A stretch of DNA of 64,000 nt from Promethearchaeati archaeon SRVP18_Atabeyarchaeia-1 (GTDB taxonomy: Archaea; Asgardarchaeota; Atabeyarchaeia; Atabeyarchaeales; Atabeyarchaeaceae): contig CP147779.1 of NCBI GenBank assembly GCA_037308085.1, forward strand, positions 256,001 through 320,000, read 5' to 3'. A model generated the notes under the pieces. That model had not been told where the DNA came from and searched no databases. It was given only the letters and a program-made list of their open reading frames with translations. Positions 15,852 to 50,119 of the stretch are shown here, piece by piece. Made by a program: the position numbers and the translations under genes. Position 1 is the stretch's first letter. Each line of letters starts with the position of its first letter.

Positions 15852-16576
15852 CGAGCTTTCACTTTCCTTTTTTCTATTTTCTCTGACTTCTCTGTCTTCA
15901 AGTTGAACGGTTTTCCCTCATTAAGTACCTTCTCAGGTATCCTGGCCGACCATCTCGTCAGAAATGCAACATCCTCATCCGCATTCCTCAGGTCGTCCGG
16001 TAATAAGTGGGGTATGGTTTCGATCACAGGATACCATCGCTGGCATTTCTTGCACGTAATCAATGCTTCCTCCACCTCTGTCAGGAAGAAGTACCAATTC
16101 AGCAGGTGTATATCTGGGAGTATCCCCTGAAACACCTTCTTCAGTTCGTCCAAGCTGACCTTTGTTGACGCCGCTCCAAACTGCTTGGCTGTTTTGCCCA
16201 CGGTGTCTGTTACCTTGGCCTTGACTTGTTCAAGAACCTTGGTCGCCGGCGACGCAGTCGCATCGTCTATTGATTGGGCTGAGGCAACCTTCTCGTTGAC
16301 AATTCGCAGGTATTCTGCGAGCGGTTTCTTTTCGCGCGAAAATTCATCTTCAATCTGGAGCTGATCGCCCTCATCCATCTTTACGCATTTCTCCTTCTTT
16401 CCATTGGGGAGAGTCAATATACAGCTGTCCTCAAGAACAGAGAGCTGACGATTCGTGAAGGCCGATCCAACCTTCGAGAAGTCCTTCTGGTCAGTCTCCC
16501 AGTTGAGGATTCTAAGATCCAGTGGATAGTGCTTGCAAATCGGGCAGGCCAGTATGTCAAGAAGCCATATTCTCAT
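15848..16576 (-). CDS. Trm112-like methyltransferase activator with a long internal insertion
   Basis: LLDILACPICKHYPL...CKKCQRWYPVIETIPHLLPD, with ~145 aa between the Zn-finger halves. Confidence 0.8.
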   Translation of the reverse strand: MRIWLLDILACPICKHYPLDLRILNWETDQKDFSKVGSAFTNRQLSVLEDSCILTLPNGKKEKCVKMDEGDQLQIEDEFSREKKPLAEYLRIVNEKVASAQSIDDATASPATKVLEQVKAKVTDTVGKTAKQFGAASTKVSLDELKKVFQGILPDIHLLNWYFFLTEVEEALITCKKCQRWYPVIETIPHLLPDDLRNADEDVAFLTRWSARIPEKVLNEGKPFNLKTEKSEKIEKRKVKAR

Positions 16577-16588
16577 TTTGACCTTTCA

Positions 16589-17752
16589 CTACCTTTCTCT
16601 CTGATGAGATATAGCATTGCCTTGTGTTCTTATGACTTTCTCCCGCCCCACGGTTGAATGTGGCTCTAATCTTACCTCGGAACAAATCAAGGTATCTTCG
16701 CCTATTTTGCAGCCCGCCCCCAGTACGGCGTATCTCTCTATTCTGGTGTTCGAGCCAATCTCACATTTCTCGTCCAAAATGCACTTGTCGAGCGTGACCC
16801 TTGAATGAATCTCTGCTGAGCCTAAAACAGATGCCCCGTTCAAGTTTGACGATTCCCCCACGCTCACTCCGCGCTTCAATACCGTCCCTGGACGCACCGA
16901 TGCGCCCTTTCTAATCGTACACGAGTCCTCGATGTAGGCTGGACCTTGAATGGTGACTCCCTTCTCGAGGCTTGATCCATCCCCGATCCAGACGCGCCCC
17001 TTTATTGTAGCTTTGGCAATATCTGCTGTGGCAGAGATCGAGGTGGAGAGCTTGCTGAGAATCCATGCGGATGCTTCAAGGAAGCCTTCGACGCTTCCAA
17101 TATCTGTCCAGAACCCTTTTGCACGGTACCCATATAGAGGATTGCCTTTTTCCAAGATAGCCGGAAAGACTTCTCCTGCAAAGTCACATTGTCTATTTCT
17201 CGGGATCAGGTCAAGAGCCTCTGGTTCAAGAACGTACAATCCAGTGCTTATCAAATCGCTCTGAGTCTTCTGGGGAGGAGGCTTCTCCTGAAAACCCGTA
17301 ATTCTGTCGCTGCGACCTAACTTTACTACGCCATATTTCCATGGTTGCTTAACTTGAATTACACTCAGGGTTGCGAAAGCTTTTCTTTTCTTGTGGTATT
17401 CCAACTGTCTTGCCAAATCGATGTCCGTTATATTGTCTCCTTGAATCACGGCGAAAGTCTCGTCCAAGAATTGATCAGCATTCTTGACCGAGCCGGCGGT
17501 GCCCAGGGGGGTATCCTCTCTAGGGTACCTCATAGTGACCCCGAATCGTGAACCATCGCCAAAGTAGCTCTTGATCTGCTCCTCAAGGTAGTTAGCGGTG
17601 ACAATTATTTCGCGAAACCCTTGTTTTGAAAGCATTTCTATTAGATATTGTAGGACGGGTTTGGGTCCTATAGGTAGCATTGGTTTGGGTCGTGAATATG
17701 TGAGTGGACGCAGCCTTGTACCATAGCCACCTGCTAGAACCACCGCCTTCAA
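16589..17752 (-). CDS. NDP-sugar pyrophosphorylase (mannose-1-phosphate guanylyltransferase-like)
   Basis: LAGGYGTRLRPLT..PKP, PLGTAG and a C-terminal hexapeptide LbH region. Confidence 0.88.
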   Translation of the reverse strand: MKAVVLAGGYGTRLRPLTYSRPKPMLPIGPKPVLQYLIEMLSKQGFREIIVTANYLEEQIKSYFGDGSRFGVTMRYPREDTPLGTAGSVKNADQFLDETFAVIQGDNITDIDLARQLEYHKKRKAFATLSVIQVKQPWKYGVVKLGRSDRITGFQEKPPPQKTQSDLISTGLYVLEPEALDLIPRNRQCDFAGEVFPAILEKGNPLYGYRAKGFWTDIGSVEGFLEASAWILSKLSTSISATADIAKATIKGRVWIGDGSSLEKGVTIQGPAYIEDSCTIRKGASVRPGTVLKRGVSVGESSNLNGASVLGSAEIHSRVTLDKCILDEKCEIGSNTRIERYAVLGAGCKIGEDTLICSEVRLEPHSTVGREKVIRTQGNAISHQRER

Positions 17753-49404: not shown

Positions 49405-50119
49405 GTGGAGTTGAAAGACTTAGAGAAGAACAAGCAGAGGCTTCTTGAGCACTACGTTGACGAAGGCATTGCTAATAGTAGCACTGTGATCAAGGCATTC
49501 ATGAAGGTTCCGAGAGAGGAATTTGTGCCGGAGGACGTCAGGGATTCTGCTTATGATGATCGCCCCCTTCCGATAGCTTTTGGGCAAACAATAAGTGCGC
49601 CACACTACTTGGGAACCCCAAGTTGGGCGAGACATGGTCATCATAATGTGTGAACAGTTGAAGCTTGAGGAAGGGCACCGCGTGCTCGAAGTGGGAACTG
49701 GTTCGGGTTACCATGCTGCGATCTGCGCCGAAATCGTTGCACCTGCCTCATCTCGGAAGCCGGGGCATGTCTACACAATCGAGAGAATAAGGTCCTTAGC
49801 CGACTTTGCTAGGGAGAACTTGAGGAGAACAGGTTACGAGGACCGCGTGACTGTAATTGTCGGAGACGGAACAGTAGGTTACAGGGAGGCCACGCCGTAC
49901 GACAGAATTCTTGTGACGGCGTCAGCGCCCAAAATCCCCGATCCTTTGGTCGAGCAGTTAGGCGACGCGGGAATAATGACGATCCCTGTTGGCGGTCGGT
50001 ACGGCTGGCAGGATTTGGTCATTATAAAGAAAATGAAGGACGGCAAGATAAAGACCGAGAACTTCGGTGGAGTAGCGTTTGTGCCCCTAATTGGAAGACA
50101 TGGCTGGGAAAACGAGTAG
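49405..50119 (+). CDS. pcm: Protein-L-isoaspartate O-methyltransferase; exons 49405-49603 and 49632-50119 (228 aa spliced)
   Basis: [23 protein letters not shown]|[16 protein letters not shown] and FVPL. The two track ORFs join on removal of 28 nt. Confidence 0.9.
49604..49631 (+). other. 28-nt BHB intron in pcm mRNA
   Basis: GTG-CGCC-ACA-[CTACTTGGG aac CCCAAGTTG]-GGCG-AGA-CAT forms helix-bulge-helix-bulge-helix; the canonical cuts restore the reading frame. Confidence 0.85.

Follow-up and report, generated by a model that had tools for sequence, protein, structure and literature searches.

The pcm gene of Atabeyarchaeia-1, located in the window (the whole 64,000-nt stretch of DNA that was analysed), very probably carries a genuine archaeal BHB intron whose removal by EndA and RtcB would be needed for a functional protein. 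This reading, and with it the claim of the original prediction that expression of pcm depends on the tRNA splicing machinery, is supported by covariation among 19 genomes, exact restoration of APHM at 19 of 19 junctions, insert lengths in all three phases, purifying selection, the presence of EndA and RtcB and the existence of a single pcm gene.

As read from the sequence and its ORF list, the window's pcm lies in two pieces in different frames, with the break between 49603 and 49632. The unspliced ORF (49405-49653) continues for 15 unrelated residues past the break to a TGA at 49651-49653, and the downstream pcm frame is +1 and runs to 50119. Excision of 49604-49631 (28 nt) gives GCG CCA CAC ATG GTC, and the product is a 228-aa PCMT. 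The original prediction had placed the frame break inside TISAPH-MV, ahead of the same TGA, and had obtained SAPHMV and 228 aa by removing 49604-49631 under the bulge rule; every coordinate and the spliced product were reproduced. The parts of the gene, in window positions, are:

49405 to 49603, + strand: pcm exon 1, with a GTG start according to the ORF finder; its last base is the C of the split His codon.
49604 to 49631, + strand: predicted 28-nt BHB intron, from base 3 of bulge 1 through base 2 of bulge 2.
49632 to 50119, + strand: pcm exon 2, beginning with AC of the His codon, followed by ATG GTC; the stop codon TAG is at 50117-50119.

Exon 1 matched positions 2-59 of the Pfam PCMT profile (PF01135) with 48.8 bits and exon 2 matched positions 61-208 with 153.8 bits, at a cut-off of 20.3; the profile position absent between them is the split His codon. 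On P. furiosus PIMT 1JG1, the best PDB relative, exon 1 corresponds to residues 13-77 and exon 2 to residues 79-228, and on the single chain of PDB 2YXE the two pieces cover 2-62 and 65-214. Since the exons adjoin on both Pfam PCMT and 1JG1, the break must split a single codon in the interior of a single-domain fold, within the TISAPHM motif. The spliced product matches the PCMT/PIMT profile over its full length, including the TISAPHM pre-region and the AdoMet motif LEVGTGSGY. Besides the insert the gene has no other defects, and a search with exon 2 found no second copy in the Atabeyarchaeia-1 genome, so that pcm is single-copy.

Archaeal BHB substrates are cut between bases 2 and 3 of each bulge (PMC2738675). 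The region around the break in the window's copy folds into the following elements, all on the + strand:

49595 to 49597, + strand: 5' strand (GUG) of the outer helix h, pairing with 49633-49635 (G.U, U-A, G-C).
49598 to 49601, + strand: 5' strand (CGCC, from the Ala-Pro codons) of the central 4-bp helix H, pairing with 49626-49629.
49602 to 49604, + strand: 5' bulge ACA, with predicted cleavage after 49603.
49605 to 49625, + strand: inner helix h', formed by 49605-13 and 49617-25 (strands CTACTTGGG and CCCAAGTTG), with 8/9 pairs, one U.U and an AAC loop at 49614-16.
49626 to 49629, + strand: 3' strand (GGCG) of the central helix H, internal to the intron.
49630 to 49632, + strand: 3' bulge AGA, with predicted cleavage after 49631.
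49633 to 49635, + strand: 3' strand (CAU) of the outer helix h, pairing with 49595-49597.

The hBHBh' elements named in the original prediction (outer helix GTG/CAT, central helix CGCC/GGCG, bulges ACA and AGA, and a stem with 8 of 9 bp) parse as it described them, and the full form holds for the window copy. RNAfold gave -13.5 kcal/mol for the BHB structure and -17.4 kcal/mol for the MFE structure, which shifts the first inner pairs by one register. Taken alone, the fold of the window's copy is modestly above chance (z = -2.1, with 7/200 shuffles equally good); it is more than chance because 19 orthologous junctions keep the structure with covariation. No RNA family was found by Rfam and no tRNA by ARAGORN in the 64-kb window. 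Nearly all tRNA genes of this genome have multiple non-canonical introns, and standard finders may miss such genes in the window.

In the mechanism that we propose, the Ala-Pro codons (CGCC) of the primary transcript would form a 4-bp helix with a GGCG close to the 3' end of the insert, bordered by two 3-nt bulges and closed on its inner side by the intron hairpin. A heterotetrameric (alpha-beta)2 endonuclease would then cut after base 2 of each bulge, and RtcB would link ...GCGCCAC to ACAUGGUC..., by which the His codon and the active-site motif TISAPHMV would be remade. The predicted junction of the spliced RNA is GCGCCAC/ACATGGTC, i.e. ...ATAAGTGCGCCAC joined to ACATGGTCATC..., and the 28-nt intron would be released, probably as a circle. 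Without splicing the gene would yield at most an 82-aa fragment, or an N-terminally truncated protein that does not contain the motif.

Exon 2 was searched against 41, then 400 genomes of the same phylum. Interrupted pcm genes, with an open frame ending just before the conserved Met, were found in sample families f1, f3, f7, f8, f14 and f18. After removal of duplicates, 19 distinct junctions remained, from no fewer than 19 Asgard genomes; their inserts are 23-32 nt long, and the lineages carrying them are Atabey-, Frey-/Jord- and Baldrarchaeia and allies. The insert site is identical in all, after CCAC of Pro-His (CCTC in one copy) and in the same split His codon; the first two bases of the 5' bulge are AC in 18/19 and TC in 1/19. 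Excision by the BHB rule restores A-P-H-M at every one of the 19 junctions, with no indel relative to uninterrupted orthologues. In one genome (G015, family f3), the second of three pcm-like genes (G015:C126, L046:52-105) carries a 30-nt intron at this site, with the variant 5' bulge UCU and the Pro codon CCT, and another copy is uninterrupted; these mixed copies could inform on gain, loss or transfer of the intron-bearing allele.

An independent scan for the junction pattern covered one genome per species over 185,579 species. It returned 16 records, every one of them Asgard by title or by contig match or junction, and no instance of the pattern outside Asgard archaea among these genomes. Atabeyarchaeia-2 (CP147780), Freyarchaeia-1 (CP147778), several Jordarchaeia, Baldrarchaeota/Baldrarchaeum and MAG_95 (DXJG01) are among the records; four with generic names ('archaeon', 'uncultured archaeon') match genomes of the phylum sample or share the pcm junction. 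The record JAPDJY010000008.1 (64,896 bp), labelled 'Thermoproteota archaeon isolate S9B3_HD70', is the same as a contig of family f7, which groups with Jordarchaeia, and its NCBI label looks wrong.

The 19 junctions were aligned with MAFFT, with both arms and the 3-nt bulges in fixed register. The insert stems differ wholly in sequence among the 19 genes and yet pair. The central helix is 100% paired at all 19 junctions, and two genomes of different families show a double change from G-C to A-U in it: the Ala codon has gone synonymously from GCG to GCA and the intron base from C to U. Atabeyarchaeia-2 has the compensated pair, CACC/GGUG. Pairing in the inner helix is 94.7%, with all seven counted pairs (7/7) altered on both sides, and in the outer helix 64.9%; the latter is missing from most MFE folds. 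Overall pairing is 89.8%, as compared with 32-52% when the 3' partners were slid by 1-3 columns. Both sides have changed in 8/14 pairs, and the covariation score is 0.506 versus 0.185 for shuffled alignments and 0.08-0.21 for the slid controls; in 500 shuffles, neither the pairing nor the covariation score ever reached that of the real alignment. Among relatives, loops and stems vary freely in sequence. A variable insert at the same site with conserved pairing, which the original prediction had proposed to look for in orthologous genes, is thus what the 19 junctions of 23-32 nt and 89.8% pairing display. Because the outer helix is weak in most relatives, those copies have the relaxed HBh' form; the window copy and a few others are predicted to be strict hBHBh' and most relatives relaxed HBh'.

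The junctions also bear on the coding sequence. The Ala-Pro codons are GCG CCA in 16/19 intron-bearing pcm genes, as against seven codon combinations in 11 intron-less SAPHM genes. Only in intron-bearing genes are the synonymous sites on the exon side of the central helix frozen, an RNA-level constraint on the coding sequence. Three close pairs gave omega values of 0.03-0.06 for exon 1 and 0.02-0.05 for exon 2, indicating purifying selection on both; these values are approximate since dS is saturated. Insert length modulo 3 is 1, 2 and 0 in 5, 11 and 3 sequences, respectively.

In the pcm tree, the genes with an intron fall into four well-supported groups (Atabey; f14/DXJG01-Baldr; Baldrarchaeum; Jord+Frey), and the backbone that connects these is not resolved. 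Constraining the tree to a single intron-bearing clade lowers the likelihood by 16.9 lnL (p-AU 0.041), a marginal rejection obtained with long branches. One ancient gain with losses, or repeated gains at a favoured site, are both possible from these sequences. The persistence of the intron may be due to the rarity of exact deletion and to the conserved Ala-Pro codons, which would provide a stable half of the recognition helix.

Atabeyarchaeia-1 (Ca. Atabeyarchaeum deiterrae) has a genome of 2,808,651 bp in a single contig. According to PMC11291895, this complete genome was hand-curated and validated with long reads, and introns are present in 92-95% of its tRNA genes. Two EndA paralogues, of 209 and 241 aa, are encoded in it at 202-203 kb and 624 kb, both possessing the N-terminal as well as the catalytic domain, and there is a single RtcB (583 bits). 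Asgard EndA is an (alpha-beta)2 enzyme with an L1 loop that gives it a broad substrate range (PMC5829648), and this type cuts the relaxed cbf5 motif in Crenarchaeota (PMC2738675). Cleavage of the relaxed pcm copies would depend on the EndA specificity of these organisms. Two scans of metagenome contigs found no spliced junction of the Atabeyarchaeia type or the Jord-/Freyarchaeia type, and no full-length protein of the spliced type above ~65% identity was found among 5.8 billion proteins; neither result is counted against splicing.

Similar inserts were found in other protein genes of the genome. The gene ahcY (S-adenosylhomocysteine hydrolase) contains a strict BHB of 34 nt at 488226-488259 on the + strand, outside the window; its excision restores GHPS-E-VMDMSF, and the 68 aa downstream continue the AdoHcyase Pfam profile at 225-285. 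A 41-nt BHB with an 11-bp inner helix and a 4-bp outer helix is present in gatB/E (2219068-2219108, + strand, also outside the window), where it interrupts the catalytic GatB_N domain: the upstream piece matches profile positions 2-30, and the downstream piece, which is in another frame, matches 45-215. An in-phase insert of 54 nt (320516-320569) lies on the - strand, 516 nt past the window end, in a putative endoQ gene; it contains stops and has a BHB-like fold. Its excision restores ...LLGTGD/FTSPRW..., a motif which is the support for this case; Pfam has no model for endoQ, and the flanks have no Pfam match on either side.

A structure-first census of BHB-interrupted ORFs was made over the genome, in which fold and open frames were followed by dicodon coding potential and frame-shifted decoys. 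The first version overlooked pcm because of its U.U mismatch. There were ~9,800 hits for the real set and for each decoy shift, and 78 versus 53-72 loci at the strict setting. Because borders between neighbouring co-directional genes get through the filters just as often as real hits do, this census gives no number for the mRNA introns. Abutment on Pfam profiles was tested for four strong census candidates, and gatB/E alone passed. BHB-like hits that join long open frames were located at 1622590-1622640 (with LAGLIDADG upstream), 657500-657549 (PolD DP2 large subunit) and 16553-16605 (DUF7065 protein); each of them may be an intron, mark the boundary of an intein or a domain, or have arisen by chance.

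From the above we infer that pcm transcripts are indeed cleaved and ligated, that this happens constitutively, and that the intron is an insertion tolerated for a long time and not a regulator. A regulated switch, as suggested in the original prediction by analogy with XBP1, with a real intron but conditional splicing, so that pcm output would be gated by EndA/RtcB or by stress as in XBP1/HAC1, is unlikely. The long retention of the site in several Asgard classes and the function of pcm as a damage-repair enzyme would suit a switch, and the 5'-UTR BHB intron of Haloferax HVO_1309 appears to matter for expression (PMC7714728). However, the rarity of exact deletion can account for the persistence, and the intron has no regulation-specific sequence feature, its loop and stem sequences being unconserved. 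Moreover, such introns are also present in ahcY and gatB/E and, by the tRNA figure cited above (PMC11291895), in 92-95% of the tRNA genes of the same genome. With introns in housekeeping genes and in nearly all tRNAs, general and constitutive removal is a simpler reading than a switch.

The exons could also be thought of as a split gene that works without splicing, encoding two polypeptides that assemble, with the hairpin as an intercistronic element and GGYGA as a ribosome-binding site. Exon 2 starts with AUG in 19/19 genes, 5-9 nt after a GGCGA or GGUGA that resembles the anti-16S sequence and could in principle bind the ribosome, and gene callers everywhere annotate a protein of 158-170 aa. 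But this AUG is the conserved Met of TISAPHM in uninterrupted orthologues and no new start, the break lies within one codon, in the active-site motif of a single-domain fold, and the tails of exon 1 are of random length and show no common sequence. Two separate polypeptides would predict neither the exact restoration of the His codon by the BHB rule in all 19 genes nor the covariation between the exon Ala codon and the intron base, nor the frozen synonymous sites. We consider a split gene very unlikely.

Ribosomal recoding, either by programmed frameshifting or by hairpin bypassing as in phage T4 gene 60, would make use of the stable hairpin that directly follows the take-off His codon, and a His codon precedes the downstream AUG in 7/19 sequences. 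The presence of insert lengths in all three phases means that no frameshift of fixed direction rescues pcm, and with His before the AUG in only 7/19, hopping of tRNA-His is not general: the landing codon is non-His in 12/19 and is GAC in the window copy. Several copies have immediate in-frame stops, and the symmetric 3-nt bulges around a 4-bp helix are needed by no recoding model, which makes this explanation extremely improbable. The chance that pcm is a pseudogene or an assembly artefact is close to nil: the deposited gene is frame-broken and public annotation gives the shortened product only, but the insert occurs in 19 assemblies made independently, three of them complete genomes curated by hand and validated with long reads (PMC11291895), so that an assembly artefact is hardly to be expected, and strong purifying selection on both exons of a sole pcm copy that has no other defects, like the frozen synonymous sites of the central helix, would not be predicted for a pseudogene.

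The BHB intron of pcm can be compared with known systems. As of 2020, a BHB intron within an archaeal coding sequence had been confirmed for cbf5 alone (PMC7714728, PMC2738675). The cbf5 intron of Crenarchaeota (Aeropyrum, Sulfolobus; Watanabe 2002, Yokobori 2009, PMC2738675) is, like the one predicted in pcm, a short (16-44 nt) BHB or relaxed-BHB element in coding sequence, cut between bulge bases 2 and 3 by a hetero-oligomeric EndA and too short to encode anything; it likewise occupies a single conserved site in different orders, is missing from particular lineages and is routinely annotated wrongly. The cbf5 gene encodes an RNA pseudouridine synthase in Thermoproteota, whereas pcm encodes a protein-repair methyltransferase in Asgard archaea; cbf5 hosts have one such mRNA intron and the Atabeyarchaeia-1 genome apparently several; and splicing of cbf5 was shown by RT-PCR and in vitro cleavage, while that of pcm is predicted here from comparative evidence. 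Membership in the cbf5 intron lineage (Desulfurococcales/Sulfolobales) was considered and is ruled out by the different gene and phylum, although the pcm intron would work alike.

Non-canonical tRNA introns of Atabeyarchaeia and Freyarchaeia, as described in PMC11291895 and 10.64898/2026.10.13.758758, are found in the same genomes as the pcm intron and are presumably processed by the same EndA/RtcB. They are of similar size (20-60 nt), have BHB or relaxed-BHB form and are concentrated in the same lineages (Atabey-, Jord-/Frey- and DXJG01), but interrupt tRNA genes, not protein genes. In Haloferax volcanii, EndA was confirmed in vivo and in vitro to act on an mRNA, at the BHB intron in the 5'-UTR of HVO_1309 (PMC7714728); unlike that of pcm, this intron lies in an untranslated leader and leaves the frame uninterrupted, and its host is a euryarchaeon with an alpha'2-type enzyme. 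Splicing of XBP1/HAC1 by IRE1/RtcB resembles that proposed for pcm in removing a short frame-changing mRNA intron without the spliceosome and, in metazoans, with an RtcB-type ligase. It differs in its nuclease (IRE1), its paired stem-loop motif and its regulation by stress, so that the likeness is an analogy and not a relationship.

In the searchable literature, no paper was found that connects BHB introns with isoaspartate methyltransferase or with protein genes of Asgard archaea. The word 'mRNA' is absent from the text of the 2026 preprint on Asgard tRNA introns (10.64898/2026.10.13.758758), and the intron passages in PMC11291895 concern tRNA genes only. The mechanism is known, and the pcm instance and the wider Asgard pattern appear to be unreported. 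The pcm gene would be the second gene with a BHB intron in its coding sequence, in a different phylum, and its comparative support is stronger than that of most predicted cases.

At least 28 of the nearest public clusters (JGI, ENA, Logan, NCBI; P0002-P0028, P0034, P0043) are exon-2-only proteins of 158-170 aa. These miscalled proteins, where named from Njord-, Frey- and Jordarchaeales, start at the Met after the intron and do not contain the substrate-binding motif. Since such exon-2-only calls are systematic, metabolic and phylogenomic work on these lineages relies on broken gene models. There are public metatranscriptomes from the source samples of Atabeyarchaeia-1, which makes pcm splicing, as well as the number of spliced Asgard mRNAs, directly testable.

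The intron biology of Asgard archaea bears on the origin of eukaryotic gene structure. The evidence leans towards the pcm intron being one of a whole population of endonuclease-spliced introns in protein genes of the intron-rich Asgards (Atabey-, Frey-/Jord- and Baldrarchaeia). If this is true, such splicing has been overlooked because gene callers shorten the genes without any warning, and pre-mRNAs of housekeeping genes would be routinely spliced by protein enzymes in the closest prokaryotic relatives of eukaryotes.
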